A DNA stretch of 64,000 nt from Xanthobacteraceae bacterium (GCA_051954235.1 JBQCHY010000056.1:4499-68498), one strand, 5' to 3'. Shown: positions 46,763 to 64,000, numbered from the stretch's first letter. Made by a program: numbers and translations. The notes: a model not told the origin generated them from the sequence alone.

Positions 46763-47068
46763 CCATACTGCTCCTTTGCAGGTCAAAGTTGAAGATGCGA
46801 AATTCCACATGCAAGTCGAAGATGTGAGATCCCGCCTCCACGCGAATGCGTACATCGCGTTGCTTACTCACAACCCCCGTTGTGAGCAGGCTTCAAGCAG
46901 TGGGTTTGGAATGAGAATCACCGCCCCCCAACTGCCATCATGGCTTGGTATTTAGGGAGTGTGGCGAAAAAATCTTCAAAGTGGGATTTATCTACGTGTA
47001 AGTAACAGCCGGGCGCGAAGTAATAGCGCCTTCTTACATTGCGGTGCTTCTCGACGATCTAAAACTCG

Positions 47069-48322
47069 CTAGGATCGCGTGTTTGTTTGACTTCCACCGC
47101 CCGCGGACAATTTCCAGTTGTCTGTTAACAACTCAGAAGAGTGCTGCACCGCGACATGCTTCGTCCACATGTGTTTGATCCACATGCGGACAGCGTCGGT
47201 ATGCCGCTCGAAGAGAAAGTAGAATGCAACCGCAAGTAACAAGCACGGCACGGTGAATGTCAGGTCGAGCCCGATCGATCCAATGGTGAAATCATGCGGA
47301 TTGTCGCTCATGACATTGAGAAACACGAGCATCGGATAATGTATCGCGTAGAGCGAGAAACTCCACTTCGCCGTCTCTTTTCCGAAACGCAAAAATGACG
47401 GTAGTTCGACGTTCCTAAATTCCATCCCGACGATTGCGGCTGCGGTGACCAAGCCGATGATGAGATCCTTCGCGGCCCATGGCGCGAGTAATCCCGCATG
47501 GGCAACGATGGCGGTGCCCACCACGCCGGCGACAAAGAGCACCGACCACAGCAGAATCGGCACTGAAATGGCGTAAATAACAGTCCCGAGCGACCATATC
47601 AGAAAATAGAAAAAGAACTTCAGTCCCGTATGATATCCAAGCTTATCGGAGTGCTCCGCGAAGGCGAACAGGAAGAAAATCACCACGATCAGAAGACCCC
47701 ACAAGGACGATCTGCGAACCGACAGGAATGCGAAGATCAGCAGGTAGTACCAGAACTCGTTGGACAAGCTCCACAAAGCCATATTGCCCGCAAACATCGA
47801 GCAACTGATTGTCTGCAGGAATAGCATATTGCACGAGGCGGTCGCGGGGCCGTAGCTGGCTGTAAAGATCATGAAGCCTTGCTCGAGGTGCCGGTGAGCG
47901 TTCACGAACACCTGCCATCCACTCGCATACCGGGCAGAGACGAAGAAAAGCAAGGACAGCACCAGCGCGGGTATCAGCACCACATACAACCGTGCTGCGC
48001 GCGCAGACAAATAGTCGACGCCGTTGAGTCTTCCCATACTGGCGCGAACCAGCGCTGGCCCGCCCACCAGATAGCCGCTGAGGACAAAGAACACGATGAC
48101 GGCGGACGGCCCTTGCGCGCTGAGGCTCCACAAAACAGAGTACGCATACACGATCGCCGAACCGTAGCTTTCGGCGGGAAGTTGCTCCTGGAAAAGCAAT
48201 TGATACGAATGGAAGAGCACGACCTCAATGGCAGCCAGCCCGCGCACCAGATCCAGCCAATCGGAAAGGGCAGAAGACACTCCCGTCTTTGACCGGAGAT
48301 GGATCATGTCTCTTCTCGCCAT
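47069..48322 (-). CDS. Acyltransferase-3 family membrane O-acyltransferase (ExoZ/OafA/NodX-like, no SGNH domain)
   Basis: It has WLDLVRGLAAIEVVLFH (catalytic His region) and about 10 TMs. The start may be the second Met at 48307, which has a purine-rich RBS. Confidence 0.8.
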   Translation of the reverse strand: MARRDMIHLRSKTGVSSALSDWLDLVRGLAAIEVVLFHSYQLLFQEQLPAESYGSAIVYAYSVLWSLSAQGPSAVIVFFVLSGYLVGGPALVRASMGRLNGVDYLSARAARLYVVLIPALVLSLLFFVSARYASGWQVFVNAHRHLEQGFMIFTASYGPATASCNMLFLQTISCSMFAGNMALWSLSNEFWYYLLIFAFLSVRRSSLWGLLIVVIFFLFAFAEHSDKLGYHTGLKFFFYFLIWSLGTVIYAISVPILLWSVLFVAGVVGTAIVAHAGLLAPWAAKDLIIGLVTAAAIVGMEFRNVELPSFLRFGKETAKWSFSLYAIHYPMLVFLNVMSDNPHDFTIGSIGLDLTFTVPCLLLAVAFYFLFERHTDAVRMWIKHMWTKHVAVQHSSELLTDNWKLSAGGGSQTNTRS

Positions 48323-48405
48323 CGAACTCGACAGGCCTGCGCGTCAAACGCGCAAATCGCCATTCCAGAATGGCCCTAAATAGATACGTGCCAGATACTT
48401 GGAAG

Positions 48406-48419
48406 TTGACGACCATCAA
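48406..48419. promoter_or_regulatory. FNR/FixK-type box TTGACGACCATCAA
   Basis: It matches TTGAT-N4-ATCAA at 9/10 positions and TTGA-N6-TCAA perfectly. It lies in the divergent region 84-99 bp upstream of the acyltransferase start. A TATTTA -10-like hexamer on the minus strand (48377-48382) sits at class-II spacing. Confidence 0.45.
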
Positions 48420-48689
48420 AACGGCGGTCGGTTTTTATCTTCTAGATATTGCAATGAAAGCGAGTGTCCTGGCCGTTCTGCGTGCTCGCCAACTCCAGAC
48501 AACAACGTTCGCGCGTCGAGATGCCAGCGATAACGATGCAAATGGTCACGGTTCGTCATCCGGCGAGAGCGTGGAAGTCTTTCGGTTACAGCGAGGCACC
48601 CCGAAGTCAAAGGACTGAACAGCAATAGTTTCCATTCTGCAAATCACGCGAGCGATTTCCATCAAAGCAAATTTCGAGGCTAGTCGCAG

Positions 48690-49763
48690 ATGACCTTTCA
48701 TGCTGGAGATATGGTTCAAATTCGCAGCAAGCAGGAAATCCTTGCCACGCTCGACAAGAGCGGCCGCCTGGAAGGGCTTCCGTTCATGCCGCAGATGTTC
48801 AAGTACTGCGGCAAGTCGTTCAAGATTTTCAAGGTCGCGCACAAGACCTGTGACACCGTCAACGGCACGGGCGGACGTCGGCTTCCCGGCGGTATCCATC
48901 TCGATCTTCGCTGCGACGGCCAGGCCTACGGCGGTTGCCAGGCCGCGTGTCTGATCTTCTGGAAGGAGGCGTGGCTGAAGCCGGTCTCCGACGCCTCCAT
49001 TGCGGCCGAGCCAGTGCCGGTGCCGCAATCTCCGACAGTCACGCCGATGAACGGCTGTTTGGAAAGCGACGTGTTGCGCGCGACCTCGGTAACAAGCGAT
49101 GGCGAGGAAGCGTATCAGTGCCAAGCCGTGCGCCTGCCCTACTTCACGCGCCTGCTTCCCTGGTGGCGACCGGACCAGTACATCGCCGATTATCTCTCCG
49201 GCAACGTGAACCTTCGCAAGATCTTCAAGGGTCTGATCTACACCGTGTACACCAAGGGAACCAGAGCCTACCATCCGTTCCTCGGGCGACCCGGCCGCTG
49301 GTTCTACAATTGGGTTCAAGCACGGCGCGGCGGCACGCCCTACCCCCGGCAGCGCGGCCGACTTCCGGCGGGCGAAGCCGCCCCTATCGTCGAGCTCAAC
49401 TTGCAACCCGGCGAGCTTGTTCGCACAAAATCCTATGAAGAGATTCTCACGACGGTGAATTTCCAGAACATGAATCGAGGCCTCTTTTTCGATGGAGAGA
49501 TGGTCCCCTATTGCGGCGGCACCTACCGCGTCAAAGCGCGCGTCTCGAAGTTCATCGATGAGAAAACCGGAAAAATGAGATACATGAAGACACCCGGCGT
49601 AATTCTCGAAGACGTCTGGTGCGGGTCATGCTTCAGCACCCGGCGAATGTTTTGCCCACGCGCAATCTATTCGTGGTGGCGTGAGGCCTGGCTGGAACGC
49701 GTTGAAGAAGCACCAGAGATGCTTCACACTCCCACCGTGGCGAAGAGCAACGCGAACGCATGA
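48690..49763 (+). CDS. Cys-rich protein with an internal tandem duplication, function unknown
   Basis: Residues 3-98 and 238-337 align: GD.V.I.S..EIL.TL......GL.F...M..YCG....V........ then a Cys cluster and FWKEAWLKPV / WWREAWLERV. I recognise no family. Confidence 0.65.
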   Translation: MTFHAGDMVQIRSKQEILATLDKSGRLEGLPFMPQMFKYCGKSFKIFKVAHKTCDTVNGTGGRRLPGGIHLDLRCDGQAYGGCQAACLIFWKEAWLKPVSDASIAAEPVPVPQSPTVTPMNGCLESDVLRATSVTSDGEEAYQCQAVRLPYFTRLLPWWRPDQYIADYLSGNVNLRKIFKGLIYTVYTKGTRAYHPFLGRPGRWFYNWVQARRGGTPYPRQRGRLPAGEAAPIVELNLQPGELVRTKSYEEILTTVNFQNMNRGLFFDGEMVPYCGGTYRVKARVSKFIDEKTGKMRYMKTPGVILEDVWCGSCFSTRRMFCPRAIYSWWREAWLERVEEAPEMLHTPTVAKSNANA

Positions 49764-49809
49764 CGCACGTCCGTCAATCAATCCGAAGCCGCATCGGTAA
49801 CGCCGGCCT

Positions 49810-50727
49810 TTATGGCCGGGCGAAGCAAGGCGCCGGCCCGTTTGCGTGGTGGCGAACGATGGCTGAAGCGGCCTTATGCATAGGGCCTGCAAGCTGTGGC
49901 GGCGGGGACGTCTGAAAGTCCGCGGCGCTCCCGGAATAAAAGCGCAAGGTCGACCACTCCGTCGAGAGCTCGATCCAGTTGCTCATGCCGGCCCCCGGAT
50001 TGTTGGCGAAGCCGCTCACGTAGACCGCAGTTGGGTTTCGCCACCAGTCGGCGCCGACATTGGCAACGAGCTTTTTATTCGGGGTATCGGTCTTCATGTC
50101 CATCTGAACGTAGACGCCATCGATGCTTCCAGCCTCGTATGCTCCTCGCCTCGTCAGCCAGAAGTGCGTATTGAAGCCGGCAGTGGGCCCTGGAAGAACC
50201 GCGGTGCCGTTCGGCAGTTCCCGCACCGTGATCTGCCTGGTTTCCCTTGCACCGAAGTCGGCAGCATAGTGCCCGCCGGCAACGTCGTCGGTAGTCTGAT
50301 CCTGCACCAACAGCCATTCATGGGTGGCGCGACGGCGAACGTAGGTCTTTGCATTGGCAACCATGATGTTTGCGTCCGGATTTGGCTCTTGTGGCGAGCC
50401 GACCTCCGGATAGACCTGCGCCCATCCTGTCACCGCCGAGAAATCGGAAGGCGGCGCTCCGTTTCCCGGCGGCGCGTACGAACCACCGCACCACGCAAAA
50501 TGCCCGGGCACTCCGACGGCATAACCCTCGCTTTCACCGCGCGTGTTCTGGTCGATTGCGTCGAGGACCGGCGAGGTTATCGTCTTGTCGACGGACGACG
50601 CCGTCGCTTGGCTTGCCGATGCCGACCAATCTGGCACAGCATGGACGAGCAAAGCCGCGACGATCGCCACTGCCGGCGCAGCGGATTTAGCGGCGAAGAG
50701 CCGTAAAGGGCGGTAGCACTGATGCAT
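49810..50727 (-). CDS. Unknown-fold secreted protein, paralog 2 (signal peptide plus the shared domain only)
   Basis: The start is taken at MHQCYRPLRLFAAKSAAPAVAIVAALLVHA...SASA (Sec-type signal). The mature part aligns with 45434-46762 along about 220 aa (DAI.QNT.G.SEG, PPSDF..VTGW.QVYPE, W.LVQDQ, GADWWR, GFANNP..GMS.W). Confidence 0.65.
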   Translation of the reverse strand: MHQCYRPLRLFAAKSAAPAVAIVAALLVHAVPDWSASASQATASSVDKTITSPVLDAIDQNTRGESEGYAVGVPGHFAWCGGSYAPPGNGAPPSDFSAVTGWAQVYPEVGSPQEPNPDANIMVANAKTYVRRRATHEWLLVQDQTTDDVAGGHYAADFGARETRQITVRELPNGTAVLPGPTAGFNTHFWLTRRGAYEAGSIDGVYVQMDMKTDTPNKKLVANVGADWWRNPTAVYVSGFANNPGAGMSNWIELSTEWSTLRFYSGSAADFQTSPPPQLAGPMHKAASAIVRHHANGPAPCFARP

Positions 50728-50808
50728 CCTGCGCCGCCTCTGCCATTGGATATCGCGAACCTGATGCCGATACAGGAATGCGCGCACGTTCGCGCTGAAA
50801 AGCTCCTG

Positions 50809-52290
50809 TTACTCCGCTGCCTGGATTTCCCTGAGATGATTGCGCACCGATCGCTTGACCACTTCCTCGAGCGCAGTTTCGACTTCGACTTCGTCCTCCT
50901 GCCGGCGTGCTCGCATGAATTCCAGCAACACCGCAAATCCCGAACCCAACGCGATGCCGCCCAGCACGACAATCAGGATCAAGTGCGGCGTTCGAGGAAA
51001 CATCGGCAAAGCCGGACGCTCCGCGCGTTGCACCACCCGAACGCTCGAGAGCTGTGTCTTCTTGGCGATGTCCTGATTGATCTGCTCCTCGATCACCCGA
51101 CTGCCATAATGATCGGCGGCGGTCGACGCCCGAGTGAGTACGCGCTTCAGCCTGTCATACTCGGCCTGCTTCGAGGACAAGGATCCTAACTCATCATTCA
51201 CCTTGCCGATCTCACCTACCAATGCCTTCTCGACGTTGAGGGCGCCATTGAGCTCCGTGTTGACCTTGAGCAGGCCCGCCATGGCATCCTGGTATACCTT
51301 GATCAGCAATAGCGGCGGCGCATCATCGCTAGGGACCGTCCCGACCGAACTGCTGCCTGCTTTGTAATCGCGCCCGCGGAGATCGCTCACGATCGCGGTG
51401 ACGGTCCGCGATTGGTGGACGGGTCGCAGGGTCACGAGTTGATCGAGGATAGCCTGCTTCTGACCTTTCCAGTCTTCAATGGAACTGCGCGTTGTGGACA
51501 GCTTCGCATCGAGCGCATCGACGCGCTGCAGGAGCAATTTCCGCTGATCGTCGACAGAATAAATTCCGGCCTCGACCGAAAAATTCCGAAGATCCGTGCC
51601 CGCCTTCTCGGCCTCCTGCTCCAGGCGCTTGGTCTGCTGCTGATAGAAAACCTCGGCGCCCGGAATTTGGACGAGGTCGGCCTGCATAGCGATCAGTGCG
51701 TTCGCGAGTTTGTTCAGAAATTCTGCCGCGACAGCCCGATCCGGATGGCGGAATGACACCCGCAGAATATCGGTGCGTCCCTCGCCCCTCGCTGAAATCA
51801 GCTCGCGCAGCTTAGCAATCAGCTTCTGGTGATCGTCCTTCGTTTCGTCTGCGCTGCCGCCAGCGCTGTTCGCCTCAGCGCGAGGTTTGAGAAAATCGAA
51901 CTGCGGAGGCAGTGCCTGAAGGCTCGATGTCAGCCACGACCCCGCCACGAACATGGGGCTCGATTTGTCCTTCTTGAACAAACGGCCGTAGCCGATCTCC
52001 GAAGCCGCCAGACCGATGACCTGATCGGTCGTTGCGATTCGCGCCAGCGACTCGATGCGGCTTGTCAGATCAGGGCCTTCGCCGAGGATACTCCCTGCCG
52101 ACCGATCCTTGATGCCCTGCCCAACCCGCAACAACGTATACGACTCGTAGCGGTCGCCGACGGCGCTGTGGAAGAGAAATCCTGCAGCCGATGCGAGGAT
52201 GAGAGCAACATATATCACCCGCCGCCGTCGCCAGAGGATCGGCAATATTTCGTTGAGCCGCGGAGTGTGATTGTTCGCACCGTGTTGCAC
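50809..52290 (-). CDS. GumC/ExoP-N-type polysaccharide co-polymerase (PCP-2 without kinase domain)
   Basis: It has a Wzz-type N-terminus (TM plus YESYTLLRV), a long coiled coil, and a C-terminal TM followed by only about 35 aa with no Walker motif. The ORF opens with a GTG at 52320. The internal GTG at 52288-52290 has a GGAG RBS 8 nt upstream. Confidence 0.75.
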   Translation of the reverse strand: MQHGANNHTPRLNEILPILWRRRRVIYVALILASAAGFLFHSAVGDRYESYTLLRVGQGIKDRSAGSILGEGPDLTSRIESLARIATTDQVIGLAASEIGYGRLFKKDKSSPMFVAGSWLTSSLQALPPQFDFLKPRAEANSAGGSADETKDDHQKLIAKLRELISARGEGRTDILRVSFRHPDRAVAAEFLNKLANALIAMQADLVQIPGAEVFYQQQTKRLEQEAEKAGTDLRNFSVEAGIYSVDDQRKLLLQRVDALDAKLSTTRSSIEDWKGQKQAILDQLVTLRPVHQSRTVTAIVSDLRGRDYKAGSSSVGTVPSDDAPPLLLIKVYQDAMAGLLKVNTELNGALNVEKALVGEIGKVNDELGSLSSKQAEYDRLKRVLTRASTAADHYGSRVIEEQINQDIAKKTQLSSVRVVQRAERPALPMFPRTPHLILIVVLGGIALGSGFAVLLEFMRARRQEDEVEVETALEEVVKRSVRNHLREIQAAE

Positions 52291-52367
52291 AGCCAATGCT
52301 CCAGATTGGAAACAAACCACGCGTCGGGTTGTACGAGCGAATGATGCGCCCTGATGGCCTGCCCAAG

Positions 52368-52381
52368 TTGACGATCATCAA
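52368..52381. promoter_or_regulatory. FNR/FixK-type box TTGACGATCATCAA
   Basis: It matches the FNR consensus at 9/10 positions and is identical at 13/14 positions to the box at 48406. It lies in the divergent region between the PCP gene and the Crp/Fnr regulator gene. Confidence 0.45.
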
Positions 52382-52624
52382 GTCGCGGGTTTTGTCGGCG
52401 TTGTGACGATCTGCAGGCGACGGTCAGCGGCTCGATCATGGCAATCCTCGATGTCAGATATCGCTCGGTCACGCCCGACTTTGGCCCACGCAAGCCTGTG
52501 CGGAAGGACTAACCCCAACGGCGAATAGTACTCCCGAAGAGTGCGCGGAGCGCGCCGACCCCTCGTGTATCAAAGAACCCGCAGAACCCGAGCAGCGTGC
52601 GAACAGCGTAACGGAGGGTCGAGT

Positions 52625-53284
52625 ATGGGTATGCCGCAAATTGGAACTTGTGGGGCCGAACCGCTGGCTTACGGGGCGCTCCGCAAAGAAATCCCCGAAA
52701 GGCGCCCCCAATCGGCACCATTGCTGCTCGTCCCGCGCGGGCGCGTGCTGTTCTGGGAAGGCGAGCATCAGGCCCAAAAAATCCAGATCGTGAAGGGCGT
52801 GGTGCGGGCCGTCCAACTGCTCGAAAACGGAAACCGTCAAATCCTGACGTTCTTCTGGCCCGGCCACGTCATCATGCCGACCCGCTCGTCATGTCAGCGG
52901 ATAACGGCCGAGGCGGTCACCAATTGCTGGGTGCAACGCTCCACAGCGACCGGCACCTGCCAGGAAGAGGACCCCTGCGGCGCCCGTCAGATTCTGATCG
53001 ATACGCTGGCACTGGTTGCGACACGAAATCACAAGAACAGCGTCGCCCGGATCGCAGACTTTCTACTTCGCATCAGAAAGCACCTTCCCAGCGATCCGAA
53101 ACGGCCGCTGGCGCTCTCGCTGCTGCTGCCACGGGCGGATATCGCGGATCACCTGGGGACGTCCATCGAAACCGTTTGCCGCATCCTTGCGGAGTTCAAG
53201 ATGAAAGGGCTGATCGACCTGCCGAACCGAAAGACCATTCGATATCTCGATCTGCCCGGCCTTGCACAAGTCGCCGGCGAATAG
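52625..53284 (+). CDS. Crp/Fnr-family transcriptional regulator (FixK-like, no N-terminal Cys cluster)
   Basis: It has a cNMP-like beta-roll (VLFWEGEHQAQKIQIVKGVVRAVQLLENGNRQILTFFWPG) and an HTH LGTSIETVCRILAEF. The E..CR resembles the E..SR recognition motif of the FNR/FixK class. The start is at MGMPQ with a GGAGGG RBS. Confidence 0.85.
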   Translation: MGMPQIGTCGAEPLAYGALRKEIPERRPQSAPLLLVPRGRVLFWEGEHQAQKIQIVKGVVRAVQLLENGNRQILTFFWPGHVIMPTRSSCQRITAEAVTNCWVQRSTATGTCQEEDPCGARQILIDTLALVATRNHKNSVARIADFLLRIRKHLPSDPKRPLALSLLLPRADIADHLGTSIETVCRILAEFKMKGLIDLPNRKTIRYLDLPGLAQVAGE

Positions 53285-53329
53285 CTCATTGCAACAGCAT
53301 TTCAACGCTCGCGATCAAAGAGGCGTCGA

Positions 53330-54796
53330 ATGTCTCTCGTCCATGACACCAACCTCATAACCGGCCTGGTTCATTCGAATTCCCGCAGCCAGCCTGTTGC
53401 CCCGATCTCGCTCAACGTCATGTCGCCGCTGATTGCGATATTCGATCTCGTCTGGATCGTCGCACTGGGAATTACCGTAGGTCTTCTCTATGACCACCTG
53501 GCTCTTGGTGGGCACAGCACGGCGCAAAATCACCTCGGCGCGGGAATCGCCGTGGCCGCGCTCTACTTAGGGTTCGCTCATGCGGCCGAGCTTTATCGCG
53601 GACCGAACCTCCTCCAGGTCAAATGGCAAGTCGAACATGCCACGCTTGCCTGGCTGCTGGCGTTCGTGTGCCTTGCATCCATTGCGTTCTTACTGAAAAC
53701 GGGAGCGGCATTCTCGCGCGGCGAGATGCTGCTATTCTTTAGCAGCGGCATCATTGCCAGTGCGGCAATGCGATTGATCGTTGCGCGGGTTTGCCGCTTC
53801 GTTCTCGCGTCCGGCGCGTTGAAATCCACCCGGGTCGTGTTGGTCGGATTGGCGGACGAACTCGCCGCCAATGGCGCATTGTCCGCGCTGGAAAAATACG
53901 GTTATGCCGTAGTCAGCGTCTTCCCGTTACCCACAGACGAAAATCCGGCCTCCGCCCGCGACACGCTGAAAGCCTATTTGCGGCAGGTGACCCGTTACGT
54001 CAGGGACATGAATATCGACGAGATCATCGTCGCGATTCCCTGGCGTTCGACGGAACTCCTACGCGAGGTCGAAGACGAGTTACGCGTGCTGCCGATACAG
54101 GTCACGCTGGTGCCTGACACCATTGCAGGTCAGGTATTGGATCACCCGTTGGCTGAACTCGGTCCGACAAAGGCAGTGCAACTCCAGCGGCCACCCCTGA
54201 ATGCCTTCCAGCGCAATCTGAAGCAAGGCATCGACCGCATACTGGCCGCGACGTCCCTGTTCCTTTTGATACCCTTCCTGGCCGTGATCATCGCGGCGAT
54301 ACGGATGGAATCGCCGGGGCCGGCGCTCTTTCTCCAAACGAGGGTCGGCTTCAATGGACGGCCATTCAAAATTTTCAAGTTCAGAACGATGTCCACGCTT
54401 GATGACGGGCCGGTCATCGTTCAAGCTACCAAGAACGACAGCCGCATCACACACCTCGGCGCACTGTTGCGCAAGCTTAGCATCGACGAACTGCCGCAAC
54501 TGATCAACGTGCTACGCGGCGACATGTCGCTGGTCGGCCCGCGTCCGCACGCGCTTGCACACGACAACGAATACGATCGGCTGATCGCGACCTACGCCAT
54601 ACGGCACAAGATGAAACCCGGCATCACCGGTTGGGCCCAGATCAACGGATTCCGTGGCGAAACACCTGAAATCGGCATGATGATGCGCCGGGTGGAGAGC
54701 GACCTGTGGTACATCGAGTCATGGTCGCCATGGCTCGACATCCGCATCATGCTGCTCACCGTGGTCCGGGTCCTGCAATCGGAAAACGCCCGTTGA
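53330..54796 (+). CDS. Polyprenyl-phosphate hexose-1-phosphate transferase (WbaP/ExoY family, full-length polytopic form)
   Basis: The 488-aa protein has N-terminal TMs, a central Rossmann-like domain and a C-terminal PALFLQTRVGFNGRPFKIFKFRTM...GDMSLVGPRP. Confidence 0.9.
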   Translation: MSLVHDTNLITGLVHSNSRSQPVAPISLNVMSPLIAIFDLVWIVALGITVGLLYDHLALGGHSTAQNHLGAGIAVAALYLGFAHAAELYRGPNLLQVKWQVEHATLAWLLAFVCLASIAFLLKTGAAFSRGEMLLFFSSGIIASAAMRLIVARVCRFVLASGALKSTRVVLVGLADELAANGALSALEKYGYAVVSVFPLPTDENPASARDTLKAYLRQVTRYVRDMNIDEIIVAIPWRSTELLREVEDELRVLPIQVTLVPDTIAGQVLDHPLAELGPTKAVQLQRPPLNAFQRNLKQGIDRILAATSLFLLIPFLAVIIAAIRMESPGPALFLQTRVGFNGRPFKIFKFRTMSTLDDGPVIVQATKNDSRITHLGALLRKLSIDELPQLINVLRGDMSLVGPRPHALAHDNEYDRLIATYAIRHKMKPGITGWAQINGFRGETPEIGMMMRRVESDLWYIESWSPWLDIRIMLLTVVRVLQSENAR

Positions 54797-55224
54797 TCTA
54801 AACGGCCTACCTCTTGGCCCGGCATAAGCCCAGCTTTGCTCAAGCCGTCGTGATCAGGATCGCCGGCGCGATTGTCAAATTTCGGTATCGTTATTGAGAA
54901 CGCTCATATCGATGCGTCCGCGGTGCGTATGCTGCGTACTCTCCTCTCTTCCGAGAAGGAAGGCAGATGCCGCAGACAGACAATCCGAATTCCTTACGCT
55001 CGCATCGAGACACCGCCCCTGTTTCGCAAGATCACCATAAGGGACGTCTTGATTGGGCAGTCCTCGTCGTCCTGTTCGCATTGAGCTGCACCTTGGGATG
55101 GATTTCTCTCTTGTTGTGGGGCGCCATGCGCGCCTTTCAAATCGCCCTTCTCTGAACGCGAGGCTCGATGTCGCGCCGCCCAAGGAAATATCATCAGCGA
55201 CGTTTGATACCGATGTACCGCTTA

Positions 55225-55238
55225 TTGACGGATAGCAA
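55225..55238. promoter_or_regulatory. FNR/FixK-type box variant TTGACGGATAGCAA
   Basis: It matches the FNR consensus at 8/10 positions and fits the TTG(A/C)-N6-(T/G)CAA form. It lies 115 bp upstream of the rfbF-like start, with a CTAAAT -10-like hexamer at 55259-55264 at class-II spacing. Confidence 0.3.
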
Positions 55239-55352
55239 CTTCGCTTTGCCCCCTTGGTCTAAATTTTCAACCACACGTACGCACTTTCTCAATTCTCACC
55301 GCTCGTCGTCAGACAATGCGTCATTCACGCACACATTGCAAAGGTCGCTGAG

Positions 55353-56168
55353 ATGAAGACAGTTCTGTTCTGCGGCGGTCTCGGCACGCGTATCCGGGAC
55401 GTAGCTGAAAATATCCCGAAACCGATGGTTCCGGTCGGCGACAAGCCGATCCTCTGGCATCTGATGCACTATTACAGTCAGTTCGGGCACAAGGATTTCG
55501 TCCTTTGCCTCGGCTACAAAGCGAACGTAATCAAGGAATACTTTCTGAATTACAAACCGCAGGCTTACGCCGACTGCGTCGTCTCGGGCTTCGGCAACGA
55601 GGTCGAGATTCTCGGAAATCCGCAGCAGGACTGGCGCATTGCGATGATCGATACCGGCATCTGGCGCAATATCGGCCAGCGGCTATGGGCCGTGCGTGAT
55701 CACGTCGTGGGCGAGGAGATGTTTCTCGCCAACTACAGCGACGGTCTCTCTGACGTCAATCTCACCGAAATGATCGAAACCTTCCGCATCAGCGGAAAGG
55801 TCGCCTGCTTCACGGCGGTGCGGCCATCATTCAGTCTGCATCTGGTCGATATGCATCCGGATGGAAAAGTCGAACGGATCCGCGCCAGCCAGGAAGCCGA
55901 TCTTTGGATCAATGGCGGCTTCTTCATCTTCCGAAAGGAGATATTCGACTATATGCGCGACGGCGACGAACTCGTCGAAGCGCCATTCCAACGCTTGATC
56001 GAGGCGGATCAACTCATGGCGTTCCGGCATGAGGGATTCTGGCGTCCGATGGATACGTTGAAGGACAAGCAGATCCTCGAGGATCTCGTCGACAAGGGCA
56101 CGATGCCCTGGCTTCTCAATTTGAATCCCGGCATGGCCCCGGCCCGGACCGAGAGGAAAATGGGATGA
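55353..56168 (+). CDS. rfbF: Glucose-1-phosphate cytidylyltransferase
   Basis: It has MKTVLFCGGLGTRIRDVAENIPKPMVPVGDKPILWHLM...LCLGYK, and the 271-aa length is typical of RfbF/DdhA. Confidence 0.9.
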   Translation: MKTVLFCGGLGTRIRDVAENIPKPMVPVGDKPILWHLMHYYSQFGHKDFVLCLGYKANVIKEYFLNYKPQAYADCVVSGFGNEVEILGNPQQDWRIAMIDTGIWRNIGQRLWAVRDHVVGEEMFLANYSDGLSDVNLTEMIETFRISGKVACFTAVRPSFSLHLVDMHPDGKVERIRASQEADLWINGGFFIFRKEIFDYMRDGDELVEAPFQRLIEADQLMAFRHEGFWRPMDTLKDKQILEDLVDKGTMPWLLNLNPGMAPARTERKMG

Positions 56169-56818
56169 AGCGCTTCAAGCTCGCCGATGCAAATGAGCGA
56201 TTGTCCGTGCTTTGCATCGGCGCGCATTCCGACGACATCGAGATCGGCGCCGGCGCAACGATCCTCGGTTGGATCGATCGCGGTGTGCGCCTCGACGTCC
56301 ATTGGGTGGTTCTGAGTGCGCAAGGGCCGCGCGGCGACGAGGCGCGCTCGTCCGCCGAGGCATTTCTCGCTGGCTCGGAACGCGCGGTGATCGAGTTGGC
56401 GGAATTCAAGGACGGCTTTTTCCCGCATCAGGGGGCCGAGATCAAGATCTGGTTCGAGGCTCTGAAACGACGTGCATCGCCCGACGTGATCCTGTGCCAC
56501 ACGCGCCACGACGCGCATCAAGACCATCGCGAAGTCTGCGCATTGACGTGGAACACCTTTCGCGACCACGCGATCCTCGAATACGAAATTCCGAAATGGG
56601 ATGGCGACCTGAGCCAGCCGAATGTCTTCATTCCAGCTACCCGAACGCTGATGGAGCGCAAGGCCAAACTCCTGCGCCAGCATTTCGGCACGCAGCGCTC
56701 AAAGGACTGGTTTGACGCGGAAACATTCATGGGTCTGGCACGGCTGCGCGGCATGGAATGCCGCGCGCCGGACGGATTCGCCGAAGCCTTTCACGGACGG
56801 AAACTAACGGTGCAGTAA
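56165..56818 (+). CDS. PIG-L/LmbE-family deacetylase
   Basis: It has [16 protein letters not shown] and [13 protein letters not shown] metal-binding motifs, and a 4-nt overlap with rfbF. Confidence 0.85.
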
Positions 56819-56834
56819 AGCTAAGGAAACCGCC

Positions 56835-57908
56835 ATGCGTGTGATGGTCACAGGACACTTGGGTTATATTGGAACCGTGATGGTGCCGATGCTGCTGGCA
56901 TCTGGTCACGACGTGGTGGGCTTCGACAGCAATCTCTATGAGCGATGCACCTTCGAGGCCGGAGGCCGCATCCAGCCTGTGCCGCAGATCCGCAAGGATA
57001 TTCGCGACGTCACGCGCGAGGACCTCAGGGGGCTCGACGCCATCATTCATCTCTGCGCCTTGTCGAACGATCCGCTCGGGAATTTTCGTCCTCAACTGAC
57101 CTACGACATCAACCACGCGGGCAGCGTGCGGCTGGCGACGCTGGCGAAGGAAGCGGGCGTCAAACGCTTCCTGTTGGCCTCCTCCTGCAGCAACTACGGA
57201 CAGGCCGGCGAGGCCATGCTTGATGAGACCGGGGCGCTCAATCCGGTGACGGCCTATGGCGAATCCAAGGTCCGGTCCGAGCGCGATATCTCTACACTGG
57301 CCGGTGATGGCTTCTGCCCGACCTATATGCGCCCGGCCACCGCCTATGGCGTCTCGCCGCGAATCCGTTTCGATATCGTGCTCAACAATCTGGTCGCCTG
57401 GGCGGTGACCAACGGGCTGATCTATCTGAAGTCGGACGGATCGCCATGGCGGCCGATCGTCCACATCGAAGACATTTCGCGCGCCTTCATCGCGGCGCTC
57501 GAAGCGCCGGTGGATGTGGTCTTCAATCAGGCCTTCAACGTCGGCCAGACTGAGCACAACTATCGCATCAGCGATATCGCCAAGATCGTCGCCGATGTCG
57601 TGCCGGGCTGCCGGCTCGAATACGCCCCTGATGCAAGCCCCGATACGCGGTCCTACCGGGTCAATTTCGACAAGATCGCGCGCATGCTGCCGGCCTTCAA
57701 GCCACAATGGGATGCACGGCGCGGCGCCGAACAACTCTATAGCGCCTATCTCCGTACGAAGTTGACACTCGAGGAGTTCGAAGGTCCGCGCTACCAGCGC
57801 ATCGGTCACATCCAGAAGCTGATTGCCGACGGCATCCTTGGCGACGATCTGAAACACCGCTCGGCCGTTCATTCCGAATCCATCCGCCAGTTCGCTGTCG
57901 GTGGCTAG
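56835..57908 (+). CDS. Extended-SDR NAD-dependent epimerase/dehydratase (role in the pathway unresolved)
   Basis: It has [12 protein letters not shown] (Rossmann) and a SSCSNYG...YGESK catalytic triad region. It is not the typical RfbG (TGHTGFKG) signature. Confidence 0.8.
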
Positions 57909-57922
57909 ACCAGACACAAGCC

Positions 57923-58501
57923 ATGATCTTTACCGAAACAAAGCTCAAGGGTGCGTTCATCATCGATCTCGACCGCAAGACGGACGAGCGAGGTTTCTTC
58001 GCGCGCACCTTCTGCCAGCACGAATTCCGCGAGCATGGGCTTCGGTCCATGACCGCCCAAACCAATGTCGCCCTGAACACCAGGAAAGGCACGCTACGCG
58101 GCATGCACTTCCAGTATCCGCCGGCCGCCGAAACCAAGCTGGTGCGCTGCACGCGCGGCGCCCTGATCGATATTATCGTCGACCTGCGTCCCGAGAGCCC
58201 GACCTATCTCGATCACATCCGCGTCGAGCTCAACGAAGACAACATGAGAGCACTGTACGTGCCGGAACGCTTCGCCCACGGATTTCAGGCGCTCCGCGAC
58301 AATACCGTGACGAGCTACCAGATGGGCGAATTCTATAAGCCGGACGCGGAAAGCGGATTTCGCTACGACGATCCACTGCTGGGACTGGCATGGCCGCTGC
58401 CGGTGTCCGTGATGTCGCCGAAAGACCTGGCTTTGCGCTCGTTACGTGACATCGAAGACGACGTGAAATGCAGAATGTCGCGCGCATCGACGGCAGCATG
58501 A
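57923..58501 (+). CDS. RmlC-family NDP-4-keto-6-deoxyhexose 3,5-(or 3-/5-)epimerase (cupin)
   Basis: It has DERGFFARTF, LRGMHFQ, KLVRCTRGALIDIIVDLR, LYVPERFAHGFQAL and YDDPLLGLAWP. Confidence 0.85.
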   Translation: MIFTETKLKGAFIIDLDRKTDERGFFARTFCQHEFREHGLRSMTAQTNVALNTRKGTLRGMHFQYPPAAETKLVRCTRGALIDIIVDLRPESPTYLDHIRVELNEDNMRALYVPERFAHGFQALRDNTVTSYQMGEFYKPDAESGFRYDDPLLGLAWPLPVSVMSPKDLALRSLRDIEDDVKCRMSRASTAA

Positions 58502-58555
58502 CCAACATCATGGTCAGCCGGTGCCGGAAGATGCCGAACTGATCAGGGAGCAGCC

Positions 58556-59818
58556 ATGATTCTGAATTCGTTGCCGGTCCTCGCGGCTGCCTCCAAGTGC
58601 CGCCATTGCCGATCCGAACTGACGCTGACGCTGGTGGATCTCGGGCTGTCCCCGGTCGCCAATGACTATGTCGATCCGGAAAATGCCGGGAAAGCCGAAC
58701 CGTTCTATCCGCTGAAGGCCTTGGTCTGCCGCAATTGCCGTCTGGTCCAGACCTCCGACATGCTGGCGGCCGACGATATCTTCCGCGCCGACTACGCTTA
58801 CTTTTCCTCGCATTCGACGTCCTGGCTGACTCATGCCCGCACCTATGTCGAGGACATGATCACACGCTTCGGTCTCACCGAAGCATCACGCCATGTCGAA
58901 ATCGCCTCGAACGACGGCTACCTGCTGCAGTATTCGATGGCCAAAGGCATCCAGTGCCTGGGTATCGAACCCTGCAAAAGCGTCGCGCTCGCCGGCAAGG
59001 CGAAAGGCATCGACACCCGCATGCGGTTCTTCGGCGTGCAGTATGCGCACGAACTGGCCCGCGAGGGCTGGACTGCCGATCTGATCACGGCCAATAACGT
59101 GTTGGCACACGTGCCGGATATCAACGATTTCGTCGGCGGCGTAAAAATATTGCTCGCCCCGGAAGGCGTCGCGACCTTCGAGGTGCAGCATCTTCTCAAG
59201 CTGATGCAACTCCACCAATTCGACACTATCTATCACGAGCATTTTTCCTACCTGTCGCTGATCGCCGGACAGCGCATCTTCGCCAGCGCCGGCTTGCGCG
59301 TGTTCGATGTCGAATTGCCCAAGTCGCATGGTGGGTCCATCCGCTTTTTTGTCTGTCACGAACAGGCCAGTCACCCGCAAACCGCCCGGGTGGCGGAGCC
59401 GCTGGCGGCCGAGCGAGCCTATGGCCTTGATGGCGACGCCGCCTATGTCGCGTGGAATGAATCGGTGAAGGCGACCAAGCGCGATCTGCTTGATCTCCTG
59501 ATCGGCCTGAAGCGTAACGGCAAGAAGATCGTCGGCTACGGCGCGCCGGCCAAAGCCGCGACGCTCCTCAATTATTGCGGCATCGGGACTGACTTCATCG
59601 AGTTCACCGTGGATCGCGCGCCGTCAAAACAGGGACGCTATGTGCCCGGCGTACGGCTTCCCATCTTCCCTCCCGAAGCCATCCTCGAGGCGAAGCCCGA
59701 TTTCGTGCTGATCTTCCCATGGAATCTGAAGAACGAAATCAAAGCGCAGATGAGCGAAATCAAGTCATGGGGCGGCCGGTTCATTGTGCCGGTGCCGAAG
59801 GCAACCATTGAAGATTAG
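58556..59818 (+). CDS. NDP-hexose C-methyltransferase (Zn-ribbon plus class I SAM MTase plus C-methyltransferase C-terminal domain; TylC3/NovU-like)
   Basis: It has CRHCRSEL...LSPVANDY...LVCRNCRLVQ (a 4-Cys zinc site), HVEIASNDGYLL (SAM motif I-like) and ANNVLAHVPD. The 420-aa length is typical. Confidence 0.75.
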   Translation: MILNSLPVLAAASKCRHCRSELTLTLVDLGLSPVANDYVDPENAGKAEPFYPLKALVCRNCRLVQTSDMLAADDIFRADYAYFSSHSTSWLTHARTYVEDMITRFGLTEASRHVEIASNDGYLLQYSMAKGIQCLGIEPCKSVALAGKAKGIDTRMRFFGVQYAHELAREGWTADLITANNVLAHVPDINDFVGGVKILLAPEGVATFEVQHLLKLMQLHQFDTIYHEHFSYLSLIAGQRIFASAGLRVFDVELPKSHGGSIRFFVCHEQASHPQTARVAEPLAAERAYGLDGDAAYVAWNESVKATKRDLLDLLIGLKRNGKKIVGYGAPAKAATLLNYCGIGTDFIEFTVDRAPSKQGRYVPGVRLPIFPPEAILEAKPDFVLIFPWNLKNEIKAQMSEIKSWGGRFIVPVPKATIED

Positions 59819-59933
59819 CCATTGTAGATAGAAACTCAGCCATCTGGGTTGCGAGCAATGCATTGAAAGGGCAGTCTCTTTAGACCGGACGTTTTAAGGT
59901 CCGGAATGTTGAAGGCAGGTTTTGTCGATTTTA

Positions 59934-60662
59934 ATGTCGAGATTCTTGGAGAACACAACAGCGCTGGTTACGGGTGCGAGTTCCGGCATCGGGCGCGCGA
60001 CCGCGAAACTTCTCGCTCACTCCAAGGTAAAGGTCGCCTTGGTCGGGCGGCGCCAGTCCTTGCTTGAAGACCTCGCAGCGGAATGCGGCCCGCGCGTATC
60101 CGCTTATCCTTGCGATATGACGGATGACGCACAACTCAAAGAGCTTGCGGATCGGATACGCGTCGATCTTTCCAGGATCGATATCCTGGTCCATTCGTCG
60201 GGAATCATCAAACTGGGAACGACAGAGACATCGCCTGTCTCCGATTTCGACAGCCAGTATGCAGCCAACGTTCGGGCCCCCTACACCCTGACGCAGTTGC
60301 TGCTACCGCTTCTGCGCGAGGCATCCGGGCAAATTATTGTCGTGAATTCCTCGATCACCCGCGCGCACAATACGGCCGGCCGCGGCACCTACGCCGCGAC
60401 CCAACACGCCGTCCACGCAATGACGAACGCTCTGCGCGATGAAGTCAATGAGTTCGGCGTGAGAGTGACGAGCATTTTTCCCGGCACCACCGCAACCCAA
60501 CGACAGATGGATCTTCACGCGATATCCGGCAGACGATACGATCCCGATCGTATGTTACAGCCGGAAGACGTCGCCGAAGCGGTGTTGTTCGCACTCACCA
60601 TGGGCAGGACAGCAGAAGTTACCGATCTCTACCTACGTCCCATGCTCAAACCTCTACCCTGA
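59934..60662 (+). CDS. Classical short-chain dehydrogenase/reductase (candidate ketoreductase)
   Basis: It has ALVTGASSGIGRA (TGxxxGxG), NSSITR and YAATQHAV (YxxxK-like, with Q in place of K). The ATG at 59934 is preferred over the TTG at 59922. Confidence 0.8.
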   Translation: MSRFLENTTALVTGASSGIGRATAKLLAHSKVKVALVGRRQSLLEDLAAECGPRVSAYPCDMTDDAQLKELADRIRVDLSRIDILVHSSGIIKLGTTETSPVSDFDSQYAANVRAPYTLTQLLLPLLREASGQIIVVNSSITRAHNTAGRGTYAATQHAVHAMTNALRDEVNEFGVRVTSIFPGTTATQRQMDLHAISGRRYDPDRMLQPEDVAEAVLFALTMGRTAEVTDLYLRPMLKPLP

Positions 60663-60719
60663 AGGGCCGCCACCGGTCGCGATCGATCGATCGGAACGAT
60701 CCGAAAAGGAAGGCATCCA

Positions 60720-62036
60720 GTGTCGAACAGGAAGCACCATGCCGACGCGGGCGAGGTTCCTCCAATTGACCTGCATGGGTTGGTGCAGGAGCTTTTCCCG
60801 ATCAATCGAAGCCTCACCGGCGCCGGCGTTCGCGAGACACTAGCGATCCTGGCGCGATACGTCGCGCTGAACATCAGGGAGATTCCGAGCGGTACAGCGG
60901 TGCTCGATTGGCACGTTCCACTGGAATGGAACATTCGCGGCGCAACCATCAAGACACTGGACGGCCGACGCATGGTCGATTTCGCGGACAACAATCTGCA
61001 TGTCGTCGGCTACAGCAAGCCGTTTCATGGCGAGGTGAGCCACGCGGAACTAGCGCGGCATGTCCACACCCTGCCCGATCAGCCCGACCTCATTCCCTAT
61101 CGCACCGGCTACTATGCCGACGACTGGGGGTTCTGCATGGCCGACAATCTCTGGCAAACCATGCAAGACGAAAGCTATGTCGTTGATATCGACAGCGACC
61201 TTTCGCCGGGGGCGCTCGCCTATGGGGAGTTTTGTCACCCAGGCGAAACATCCGATGAGATACTGATCACGGCCCACATCTGCCATCCGAGTCTTGCGAA
61301 TGACAACCTTTCCGGAATCGCCGTAGCCCTTGCATTGGCTATGCGGCAAACGCAGCTCAAGACACGATTGGGTTTACGCGTTCTGTTTCTGCCTGCGACG
61401 ATCGGCGCGATCTCGTGGCTCGCCCGCAACGAGGATCATCTCGGCAAAATTCGCCATGGATTGGTTCTGACCTGCATCGGCGATAACGGAGGCTTCCACT
61501 ACAAACAAAGCCGAAGCGGCGCACCCATCGACCATGCCGTCGCGCACGTACTGCGCCATTCCGGCCATCCGCACGAGATCATGGCCTTCGATCCCTACGG
61601 CTACGACGAAAGACAATTCTGTTCGCCGGCGTTTGACTTGCCGGTGGGCTGCCTGATGCGCAGCGTTCACGGGACTTTCCCCGAATACCACACGTCGGCG
61701 GACAATCTCGATTTCGTGAAACCCGAAGCACTCGATCAATCCTATGCGGTAACGGCAAGCTTGCTCGACCTGCTGGACGCGAACCGCACCTACATCCGGA
61801 TCGATGGAAGGGGCGAACCCCAACTGGGGCGACGTGGTCTGTATCGCGCGATCGCCGGGCAGAAGGAAGCTGGCGGCGCTAGTCAGATGGACCTGTTGTG
61901 GGTCCTGAACCTGGCTGACGGCAAGCATAGCCTGCTGAAGATGGCGGATCGCGCCGGCGTCCCCTTTTTCCGCATCCAAAAGGCCGCGCGGCTCGCGCTG
62001 GATGCCGACCTTATCAAAGAGATCGCTGGCAATTGA
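60720..62036 (+). CDS. Aminopeptidase-like (M28-fold, DUF4910/COG4310-type) protein with a C-terminal winged-helix region
   Basis: It has ELFPINRSLTGAGVRETL and HICHPSLANDNLSGIAV motifs, which I associate with the polysaccharide-locus aminopeptidase-like family. It uses a GTG start. Confidence 0.7.
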   Translation: MSNRKHHADAGEVPPIDLHGLVQELFPINRSLTGAGVRETLAILARYVALNIREIPSGTAVLDWHVPLEWNIRGATIKTLDGRRMVDFADNNLHVVGYSKPFHGEVSHAELARHVHTLPDQPDLIPYRTGYYADDWGFCMADNLWQTMQDESYVVDIDSDLSPGALAYGEFCHPGETSDEILITAHICHPSLANDNLSGIAVALALAMRQTQLKTRLGLRVLFLPATIGAISWLARNEDHLGKIRHGLVLTCIGDNGGFHYKQSRSGAPIDHAVAHVLRHSGHPHEIMAFDPYGYDERQFCSPAFDLPVGCLMRSVHGTFPEYHTSADNLDFVKPEALDQSYAVTASLLDLLDANRTYIRIDGRGEPQLGRRGLYRAIAGQKEAGGASQMDLLWVLNLADGKHSLLKMADRAGVPFFRIQKAARLALDADLIKEIAGN

Positions 62037-63380: not shown

Positions 63381-63707
63381 CTTCAAACTTCCTTCGCCGA
63401 TATCTGCCGTCAAGTTAGCGCGCGGCGCGCCTAACATGCAGCCTTACCGTTTTGCATAGGGACGCCTGCCAGGCCCGTCATCGAACGCCGGTTTTGCGCC
63501 TCGGTGGCGAAAGCAAATGACATCGCGTGGAACATCTGCTGATTGGGGCGATTGTGGACGATTTCGCCCATGCTGATCTCATGAGCGAGCTAACGCTTGG
63601 ATTGAATGCCGGAACGGCGTCTGCCACGGTTCAGGGCTCGAAAATCTCGAGCCCGTTCGACCTCTAACCTGCTCGCCGTCCCGGCTACGCCAAACTTGCG
63701 GCCAGTT

Positions 63708-64000
63708 CTACGCCGAGCCATCGGCCCGGTATTGACGAGGGTCAAGTTCGAACTGCGGATCCGGGAATGTCCAACTTGCAGTCGAACAGCGGTCATCATC
63801 TGGAATCGCATCCGTAAAATCGACCGGTTCATGGGCGCCTGTCCTGGCAATCCACTGACCGCCGACGACTTGACACTCATCAATATTCCATGGTGTTCCG
63901 GCCTTACCCTCCGACAATCCCCACGCCTTTGCGACCGACATCGGATTTCGACGGTCGCAAGCAGGAGGAAAAGTTGATCGGATCGTGACGTCAGCAAGAC
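63708..64000 (-). CDS. 3' end of an unidentified gene whose start lies beyond the window
   Basis: The minus-strand frame containing MSVAKAWGLSEGKAGTPWNIDECQVVGG... has no stop between 64000 and 63708. I recognise no motif, so it may be non-coding. Confidence 0.2.
   Translation of the reverse strand, partial: LADVTIRSTFPPACDRRNPMSVAKAWGLSEGKAGTPWNIDECQVVGGQWIARTGAHEPVDFTDAIPDDDRCSTASWTFPDPQFELDPRQYRADGSA

Follow-up and report, generated by a model that had tools for sequence, protein, structure and literature searches.

We examined a 64,000-nucleotide stretch of DNA from a Xanthobacteraceae bacterium (GCA_051954235.1, JBQCHY010000056.1:4499-68498), hereafter called the window, that carries several palindromic boxes of the FNR/FixK type, with the pattern TTGA-N6-TCAA. 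The boxes are distributed through a cluster of genes for a polysaccharide and a deoxysugar, and one gene of this cluster encodes a 219-amino-acid (aa) regulator of the Crp/Fnr family. The cluster also encodes an acyltransferase, PCP (a Wzz/GumC-like chain-length protein), a priming sugar-phosphate transferase, and the seven proteins of a deoxysugar operon (Table 1). The comparisons described here, which draw on sequence data, indicate that the Crp/Fnr protein is likely a dedicated activator of the surrounding cluster.

FNR/FixK-type boxes in a polysaccharide and deoxysugar cluster

An exhaustive pattern scan of the 64 kb revealed four perfect TTGA-N6-TCAA boxes (boxes 1, 2, 4, and 5), and a fifth (box 3) has a single mismatch, a G in place of T at position 11. 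All five are intergenic and lie within one 19-kb cluster. Three of them (boxes 1 to 3) had been reported in the original prediction, whose positions and sequences we confirmed; as it also stated, boxes 1 and 2 are both perfect and are identical at 13 of 14 positions, with the one difference located in the spacer. Its list for the local regulon was incomplete, because the two perfect boxes at 63732 and 63870 had been missed. Each of the five boxes matches the published FixK2 box consensus TTGA/C-N6-T/GCAA, a 14-bp palindrome (PMC9104804, PMC6710368).

The number of perfect boxes expected by chance in the window is 0.99, in agreement with the earlier estimate of about one, and a count of four was reached by one of 100 shuffles. 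Matches with one mismatch are not enriched in the window (32 versus 24.9 expected); these relaxed counts were therefore discarded as evidence, and box 3 is not significant by count alone. Box 3 is supported because it is conserved in a related contig (L001, see below) and is followed by a CTAAAT -10 element at the spacing typical of the family. Furthermore, we trained a weight matrix on the boxes of distant loci only, excluding the window and loci L001 and L006. The four top-ranked sites in the window were boxes 2, 1, 5, and 4 (scores of 27.6, 22.3, 17.0, and 16.3, respectively), and thus four sites with a score of at least 16 were seen versus 0.05 expected. Box 3 ranked sixth, though the training set could not contain its G at position 11. 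Positions 1 to 35000, which hold a second polysaccharide cluster and served as an internal control, contain no TTGA-N6-TCAA box.

The description of the boxes as noncoding also proved accurate. Open reading frames (ORFs) that overlap boxes 1 and 2 show no codon-position GC signal, and the orthologous contigs have no gene call there. The spacer that holds box 3 additionally includes a conserved ORF of 62 aa, and the box lies downstream of this ORF. We also looked for repeats or mobile elements in the surroundings of the boxes; this origin was rejected, as the sole finding was a stretch of 26 nt in which boxes 1 and 2 resemble each other. An Rfam scan of the region from 47 to 64 kb gave nothing above threshold.

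Table 1. Genes, boxes, and promoter elements of the cluster, in window coordinates
Feature	Position	Strand	Sequence	Remarks
473-aa protein, function unassigned	45434-46855	-		Leftward of box 1; paralog of the 325-aa protein
Acyltransferase_3	47069-48322	-		Leftward of box 1
Box 1 leftward -10-like element	48378..48384	-	TCTATT/CTATTT	Toward acyltransferase gene; conserved in L001
Box 1	48406..48419		TTGACGACCATCAA	Perfect; divergent spacer between acyltransferase (-) and Cys-rich protein (+) genes
Box 1 rightward -10-like element	48442..48447	+	CTAGAT	Toward Cys-rich protein gene; block TTTTATCTTCTAGATATT conserved in L001
Cys-rich protein, 357 aa, no known family	48690-49763	+		Rightward of box 1
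325-aa protein, function unassigned	49810-50787	-		After PCP in the box 2 operon (49810..52320)
PCP, Wzz/GumC-like chain-length protein	50809-52320	-		First gene downstream of box 2
Box 2 -10-like element	52341..52346	-	CATCAT	21 nt past box 2, PCP direction
Box 2	52368..52381		TTGACGATCATCAA	Perfect; best weight-matrix site in the window; leftward promoter element of the PCP operon (predicted)
Conserved block upstream of regulator	52503-52550		GGAAGGACTAACCCCAACGGCGAATAGTACTCCCGAAGAGTGCGC	Probable box-free promoter or leader
Regulator 5' leader	52556-52624			Candidate Shine-Dalgarno stem
Crp/Fnr-family regulator, 219 aa	52625-53284	+		ATG preceded by GGAGG
Priming sugar-phosphate transferase (Bac_transf)	53330-54796	+		46 bp downstream of regulator gene, no box in front
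Conserved small ORF, 62 aa	54967-55155	+	…WAVLVVLFALSCTLGWISLLLWGAM…	One predicted membrane helix; between priming transferase gene and box 3
Box 3	55225..55238		TTGACGGATAGCAA	Imperfect; deoxysugar operon promoter element (predicted)
Box 3 -10 element	55259..55265	+	CTAAAT(T)	20 nt past box 3; predicted transcription start near 55272
Deoxysugar operon, seven genes	55353..62036	+		Downstream of box 3
448-aa protein, function unassigned	62091-63437	-		Downstream of box 4
Box 4 -10-like element	63705-63710	-	TAGAAC	Canonical spacing
Box 4	63732..63745		TTGACGAGGGTCAA	Perfect; faces gene (-) of the 448-aa protein
Box 5	63870..63883		TTGACACTCATCAA	Perfect; faces methyltransferase gene starting just past the window end
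Box 5 -10-like element	63905-63910	+	TACCCT (TAnnnT)	Canonical spacing

Conservation of the boxes and their association with the regulator

The nearest homolog of the regulator (92% identical) is encoded on a fully syntenic metagenomic contig (L001). There, the ortholog of box 1 is TTGACGGGTATCAA, in which the spacer is altered and the half-sites are kept, and the ortholog of box 3 occupies the same place as TTGACGAACGGCAA. Box 2 is represented by TTGACGGTGATCAA in L001 and L006, where the half-sites are again kept and the spacer is altered, and by TTGACGGTTATCAA in L009. Boxes 4 and 5 are retained in a contig that carries a 93% identical ortholog of the 448-aa protein (L039), where they read TTGACTCTCGTCAA (on the strand of the gene) and TTGATGAGCGTCAA, respectively. 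In a more distant contig (L040), box 4 is TTGACTGTCGTCAA, with a changed spacer.

One scan of species-representative genomes yielded 33 loci that encode the regulator at 48-94% identity. The hosts are Bradyrhizobium, Rhodopseudomonas, Tardiphaga, and metagenome-assembled genomes (MAGs) of Hyphomicrobiales, and they include free-living phototrophs and soil MAGs. Together with the cluster half of the window and L001, these loci form a 414-kb set that contains 96 perfect boxes, which is roughly 15 times the chance density. An intergenic enrichment check had been proposed, and with crude gene calls the density of perfect boxes in this set is 0.595 per kb in intergenic DNA versus 0.104 per kb in coding DNA. 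Mapping of the window proteins onto the loci placed the box centers at fixed distances ahead of the genes: 100-118 bp for the nucleotidyltransferase and the C-methyltransferase (to the start codon), about 54 bp for PCP (to the ORF start), and about 90 bp for the acyltransferase. In every locus long enough to judge, the boxes and the local regulator occur together.

As a control, we used seven homologous sugar clusters on plasmids of Agrobacterium, Sinorhizobium, Shinella, Mesorhizobium, Methylocystis, Cupriavidus, and ‘Roseateles’, one of which came from a Megablast comparison of the cluster with plasmids (a single weak match). All seven have the C-methyltransferase gene and a 3,5-epimerase-like gene, and the 4,6-dehydratase/epimerase, DUF4910, and PIG-L genes are present in five. 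None of the seven clusters has a Crp/Fnr gene within 10 kb, and their 152 kb contain no perfect box, versus 86 perfect boxes in 348 kb of regulator-bearing loci. The boxes therefore appear to travel with the regulator and not with the pathway, an observation that we regard as the chief argument for the local protein as their probable reader. On this comparison, the same pathway seems to be wired to different regulators in different lineages. On four of the plasmids (L042 from ‘Roseateles’, L044 from Agrobacterium, L045 from Mesorhizobium, and L048 from Shinella), which lack a Crp/Fnr gene and boxes, response-regulator genes adjoin the deoxysugar cluster, which comprises methyltransferase, nucleotidyltransferase, PIG-L, DUF4910, and epimerase genes.

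Promoter anatomy and the proposed circuit

We assembled 57 distinct promoters, anchored on the box and oriented toward the downstream gene, and also thinned this set to 40 sequences. Counted from the box, a T at position 36, an A at position 37, and a T at position 41 recur in 80-88% of the 57 promoters, and the pattern holds after thinning. This TAnnnT element is a -10 hexamer located 21 nt past the box. If transcription is taken to start 7 nt past the hexamer, the box center falls at about -40.5 to -41.5. On these predicted starts, the placement of the boxes is the class II geometry of FNR and FixK2 sites, in which the box replaces the -35 element, as the original prediction had proposed. 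An A at position -1 and a T at position 16 are also conserved and extend the palindrome to A-n-TTGAC-N4-GTCAA-n-T, and the family box consensus is A-n-TTGAC(G/A)-N2-(C/T)GTCAA-n-T.

Boxes 2, 3, 4, and 5 have their -10 elements at the spacing typical of the family, and the starts predicted for them are near 52334 (-), 55272 (+), 63698 (-), and 63917 (+), respectively; for box 1 a leftward start is predicted at about 48370 (-). For box 2, the CATCAT(T) element has the same sequence and spacing in the window, L001, L006, and L036, and the box center is separated from the PCP ORF start by 54.5 bp in three sequences (the window, L001, and L006) and by 53.5 bp in L009. Translation of PCP probably begins not at the first in-frame GTG (52320) but at the GTG at 52290, located 8 nt after a GGAG. 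This choice agrees with the 493-aa gene call in L002 and L003 and would give a PCP leader of about 44 nt. Box 1 lies between divergent genes and has -10-like elements on both sides, and it may act in both directions. A single box likewise can serve divergent genes in the FixK2 system, as at nnrR/nnrS (PMC6710368).

In the circuit that we propose, a dimer of the regulator would bind the palindromic boxes. With the box centered about 41 bp upstream of the start and standing in for the -35 element, RNA polymerase would be recruited in the class II manner of FNR and FixK2. The five boxes would serve four or five promoters in the window: box 1 those of the acyltransferase and Cys-rich protein genes, possibly in both directions; box 2 that of the PCP operon; box 3 that of the CDP-sugar (deoxysugar) operon; box 4 that of the gene for the 448-aa protein; and box 5 that of the methyltransferase gene beyond the window end. 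A promoter without a box would drive the regulator gene together with that of the priming glycosyltransferase, which would leave the regulator outside its own regulon. We infer that the regulator itself, and not a paralog, binds the boxes and that it activates rather than represses. This mechanism is that of a textbook class II CRP/FNR activator circuit, run by a subfamily not previously characterized.

The promoter of the regulator gene

The original prediction had assigned box 2 to the PCP operon and to the regulator gene alike. The assignment to PCP is upheld by the fixed distance noted above. Autoregulation was rejected, as the 900 bp preceding the regulator gene are free of FixK-type boxes in 30 of the 33 loci. 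Furthermore, the distance from box 2 to the regulator start ranges from 250 to 437 bp and varies through indels, with about 190 bp gained or lost between the window and L001. Because the distance to PCP is fixed and that to the regulator is variable, box 2 is best read as a PCP promoter element and not as an autoregulatory site.

The regulator and priming transferase genes probably form one operon, and their order is maintained in most loci. Both appear to be expressed from a box-free promoter, and the rest of the pathway appears to depend on the boxes. A regulator-transferase promoter that lacks a box would place the regulator outside its own regulon.

The box-free promoter or leader of the regulator gene probably corresponds to a block at positions 52503-52550, upstream of the gene, that shows strong conservation in L001 and L007 and whose CTA motifs persist in Bradyrhizobium loci. 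Single-sequence folds of the 5' leader allow the Shine-Dalgarno (SD) sequence, GGAGGG, to form a stem with CCCCUC farther upstream. Stems of this anti-SD/SD type (AACCCUC...GAGGGUU) are also present in L008, L009, and L011; folding z-scores are weak (-2.3 to +1.6), and a consensus fold of the leader, computed on a poor alignment, gave no structure. Translational control of the regulator through this stem is only a possibility.

A CRP/FNR protein with invariant cysteines

The regulator is a member of the CRP/FNR superfamily, within which the FixK group is its closest neighbor. Pfam matches are HTH_Crp_2 (1.2e-15) and Crp (6e-7), and the cNMP_binding domain scores 25.3 bits, just under the cut-off of 27.5. 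An AlphaFold2 (AF2) model (pLDDT 78.8) has the CRP/FNR fold, with beta strands at residues 33-107 and a helix at 119-136 followed by the helix-turn-helix, and the top 50 Foldseek matches are all CRP/FNR proteins. By both sequence and structure, the best match is FixK2 of Bradyrhizobium diazoefficiens (4I2O; phmmer E = 2e-11, Foldseek TM 0.67-0.73, 24% identity). The protein scores 69.4 bits against the NCBIfam equivalog model TransRegFixKCaul and 48 against the FnrL model, each of which has a cut-off of 300. At 69 bits versus 300 and with 24% identity to FixK2, the regulator therefore is not a FixK ortholog. Of the FixK-like circuit originally envisaged, the kinship stands, in that the protein is a distant relative of FixK2; orthology does not, and the boxes form a distinct subclass (see below).

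Its recognition helix, GTSIETVCRIL, takes the form G-T-S-(I/L)-E-T-V-C-R across the family. Glu182, Cys185, and Arg186 are invariant in 116 members, and in all 116, Cys185 stands where the FNR/FixK E..SR motif has Ser. No Arg precedes the Glu, so an equivalent of CRP Arg180 is lacking, as in FNR and FixK2 and unlike in CRP. With the Glu and Arg kept and no CRP-type Arg, the regulator is predicted to read TTGA, although the Cys in place of Ser may alter its specificity, and the earlier comparison of this helix with those of FNR/FixK proteins is supported.

The protein had also been described as lacking the FNR Fe-S cysteine cluster. This is true, as no C-X2-C-X5-C motif occurs in the N-terminal 30 residues of the 116 members, which are variable and predicted to be disordered; the sole N-terminal cysteine, at position 9, is present in 44 of the 116. 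However, that description overlooked invariant cysteines that are the family's own. Cys112, Cys118, and Cys185 occur in every member, Cys101 in 115, and Cys90 in 109. The AF2 model places Cys101 at the start of the last beta strand and the pair Cys112 and Cys118 in the loop that leads into the dimerization helix. The nucleotide-binding-loop region resembles that of FixK2 in a sequence alignment, and we know of no small-molecule ligand for FixK2. The conserved cysteines suggest redox or metal control rather than control by a cyclic nucleotide.

A bolder version of this idea is that the subfamily is a thiol or metal sensor whose invariant cysteines gate dimerization or DNA contact, that polysaccharide synthesis is switched by oxidative or metal stress and not by FixLJ oxygen sensing, and that the Ser-to-Cys exchange explains the box subclass. 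We offer this tentatively and hold it to be rather doubtful. If true, Cys101, Cys112, and Cys118 together with Cys185 would respond directly to redox state or to a bound metal or cluster, and synthesis of a surface polysaccharide with methylated deoxysugars would answer oxidative or metal stress. With one of their number inside the recognition helix, these invariant cysteines hint at a sensory mode that may be new to the CRP/FNR family.

Comparison with known systems

Like the regulator described here, FixK2 lacks an N-terminal Fe-S cysteine cluster and has a recognition helix of the form L/I-E-T-V-x-R. The boxes of the two systems share the 14-bp palindromic layout and the class II position (PMC9104804, PMC6710368). 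In addition to the low identity, the proteins differ in the E..SR motif, where the regulator has Cys instead of Ser. Oxidation of Cys183, adjacent to the DNA-binding surface, inactivates FixK2 (PMC9104804). By our reading of the alignment, this residue corresponds to a Pro in the regulator, which instead has a Cys within the recognition helix and the family-specific Cys101, Cys112, and Cys118. Box preference differs as well, with a purine at half-site position 6 here and a C in FixK2 boxes. Moreover, the regulon described here appears to be local, confined to one polysaccharide cluster, whereas that of FixK2 is global, and no FixK-type box precedes the regulator gene.

FNR (Escherichia coli and Aliivibrio fischeri, 5E44) shares with the regulator the CRP/FNR fold, a TTGA-type helix with the E and R, and a box near -41.5. 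The identity is 20-22%, and unlike FNR, whose C-X2-C-X5-C motif ligates a [4Fe-4S] cluster together with a fourth Cys, the regulator has no such motif but rather a predicted disordered segment (residues 1-29) with at most one poorly conserved cysteine.

In its proposed role, the regulator has a functional analog in Bcam1349 (BerA) of Burkholderia cenocepacia, one of the pathway-specific CRP/FNR proteins that control exopolysaccharide clusters. This cyclic di-GMP effector activates the Bcam1330-1341 (Bep) exopolysaccharide cluster (PMC3584217). This functional analogy is to a positive regulator from a different lineage. For the regulator here we obtained no evidence of a nucleotide ligand, and its cNMP-domain match falls below the Pfam cut-off. 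Our literature search found no description of this regulator type, of the ETVCR helix, of the gene cluster, or of Crp/Fnr control of Bradyrhizobium exopolysaccharide.

Candidate readers of the boxes

The boxes of the cluster differ from those of FixK2 at the inner positions of the half-sites. A purine occupies position 6 in 66 of the 76 half-sites from the cluster boxes versus 11 of the 40 from FixK2-dependent boxes (PMC9104804, Table 2), a bias that gives a Fisher p value of 2e-10, or 7e-8 after thinning. FixK2-dependent boxes prefer C at position 6, and the cluster boxes differ at both positions 6 and 7 (purine versus C/T). This subclass, the conservation and fixed -10 spacing of the boxes, their co-occurrence with the regulator, and its FNR/FixK-type helix argue that the local protein likely reads the boxes. 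That the boxes are promoter elements of a small local regulon agrees with the original proposal.

Several considerations weigh against this assignment or temper its numbers. The control clusters come from other bacterial families, which confounds the presence of the regulator with taxonomy. Counts and p values overstate independence because of the phylogenetic relatedness of the loci, and the intergenic and coding split rests on crude gene calls. The FixK2 boxes used for comparison were themselves predicted with a FixK2 motif. Transcription starts were inferred from -10-like elements, and those on both sides of box 1 are offset by about 2 nt outward from the family-typical position. In addition, every host genus also encodes FixK/FNR-type paralogs that read TTGA-N6-TCAA, and such paralogs may cross-recognize the boxes, as all five fit the FixK2 consensus.

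One alternative is that a global FixK/FNR-type regulator of the host, similar to FixK2 and responding to low oxygen through FixLJ, reads the boxes. In that case the cluster would belong to the microoxic regulon, much as originally proposed, and the local protein would have another function or only a modulating one. The fit of all five boxes to the FixK2 consensus and the shared class II geometry favor this proposal. Furthermore, Bradyrhizobium CRP/FNR paralogs overlap in box specificity, and NnrR is thought to use FixK2-like boxes (PMC6710368). We nevertheless regard it as unlikely, since the cluster boxes depart from FixK2 boxes at the inner half-site positions and co-occur with the local regulator in every sufficiently long locus. 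Rhizobiaceae and Mesorhizobium also possess FixK/FnrN, yet their homologous clusters are free of boxes where the local regulator is absent. The regulator gene also lacks a FixK-type box in 30 of 33 loci, and thus there is no sign that a FixK cascade feeds into it. The low-oxygen or symbiosis link that had been suggested for the cluster is likewise speculative, as the hosts include nonsymbiotic genera and soil MAGs and no FixLJ/FixK connection was found.

A second alternative is dual control, in which the local regulator and a FixK/FNR paralog share the boxes, as competitors or as heterologous activators, and the signal of the cluster is integrated with oxygen status. The core half-sites TTGA and TCAA would suit both proteins, and overlapping FixK2 and NnrR regulons are documented in B. 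diazoefficiens (PMC6710368). The inner-position bias argues instead that the boxes are tuned to a single reader, and we judge dual control improbable.

That the boxes are chance matches, sigma-70 -35 hexamers, or repeat remnants is very hard to credit: TTGAC is the core of the alphaproteobacterial and E. coli -35 element and resembles TTGACA, and about one perfect match is expected per 64 kb, but the palindromic half-sites are conserved across genera while the spacers vary, the weight-matrix sites far exceed expectation, and the sole repeat around boxes 1 and 2 spans 26 nt. Moreover, the TTGAC half-site is no simple -35 hexamer, because the conserved -10 element lies 29 bp past TTGAC(G/A) (box positions 1-6), which is too distant for a -35/-10 pair.

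If the local protein is indeed the reader, the window presents a concrete and testable regulon, with five boxes, four or five promoters, and one dedicated regulator, for a widespread surface-polysaccharide and deoxysugar cluster. This cluster, carried by Bradyrhizobium, Rhodopseudomonas, Tardiphaga, and soil Hyphomicrobiales, has not previously been studied. The case also implies that TTGA-N6-TCAA boxes in such bacteria cannot all be assigned to the FixK2 or low-oxygen regulon. A paralog that is embedded in the cluster and has its own box flavor is the better candidate reader here than FixK2, which is of consequence for regulon prediction in organisms with many CRP/FNR paralogs.

Gene content and other features of the window

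Gene products were assigned by Pfam and NCBIfam scans. The seven genes of the deoxysugar operon encode a nucleotidyltransferase, a PIG-L deacetylase, a 4,6-dehydratase/epimerase, a 3,5-epimerase-like protein, a C-methyltransferase, an SDR protein, and a DUF4910 protein. L001 has a highly conserved copy of the 62-aa ORF upstream of this operon, and the gene calls of L002 include one at the corresponding position. Homologs of the Cys-rich protein are adjacent to boxes in L033 and are also present in L028 and L045.

The neighbor of box 5 was identified in L039 as a gene for a 217-aa class I methyltransferase, whose start lies about 20 nt past the window end. A 231-aa ORF was rejected as the right-hand neighbor in L039 because its translation is implausibly Arg-rich and has no Pfam hit; the 217-aa frame is the methyltransferase.

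The 473-aa and 325-aa proteins, which belong to the two leftward operons, are paralogs that are about 50% identical over about 250 residues, a relationship mirrored in DNA repeats D1-D3. Neither protein matches a Pfam or NCBIfam family. The separate polysaccharide cluster at positions 1-35000 has a lower GC content (0.49-0.55), and its genes encode a Wzx-like flippase, Wzy, two asparagine-synthase-like amidotransferases, a UDP-sugar dehydrogenase, a DegT aminotransferase, and a Polysacc_synt_2 protein.

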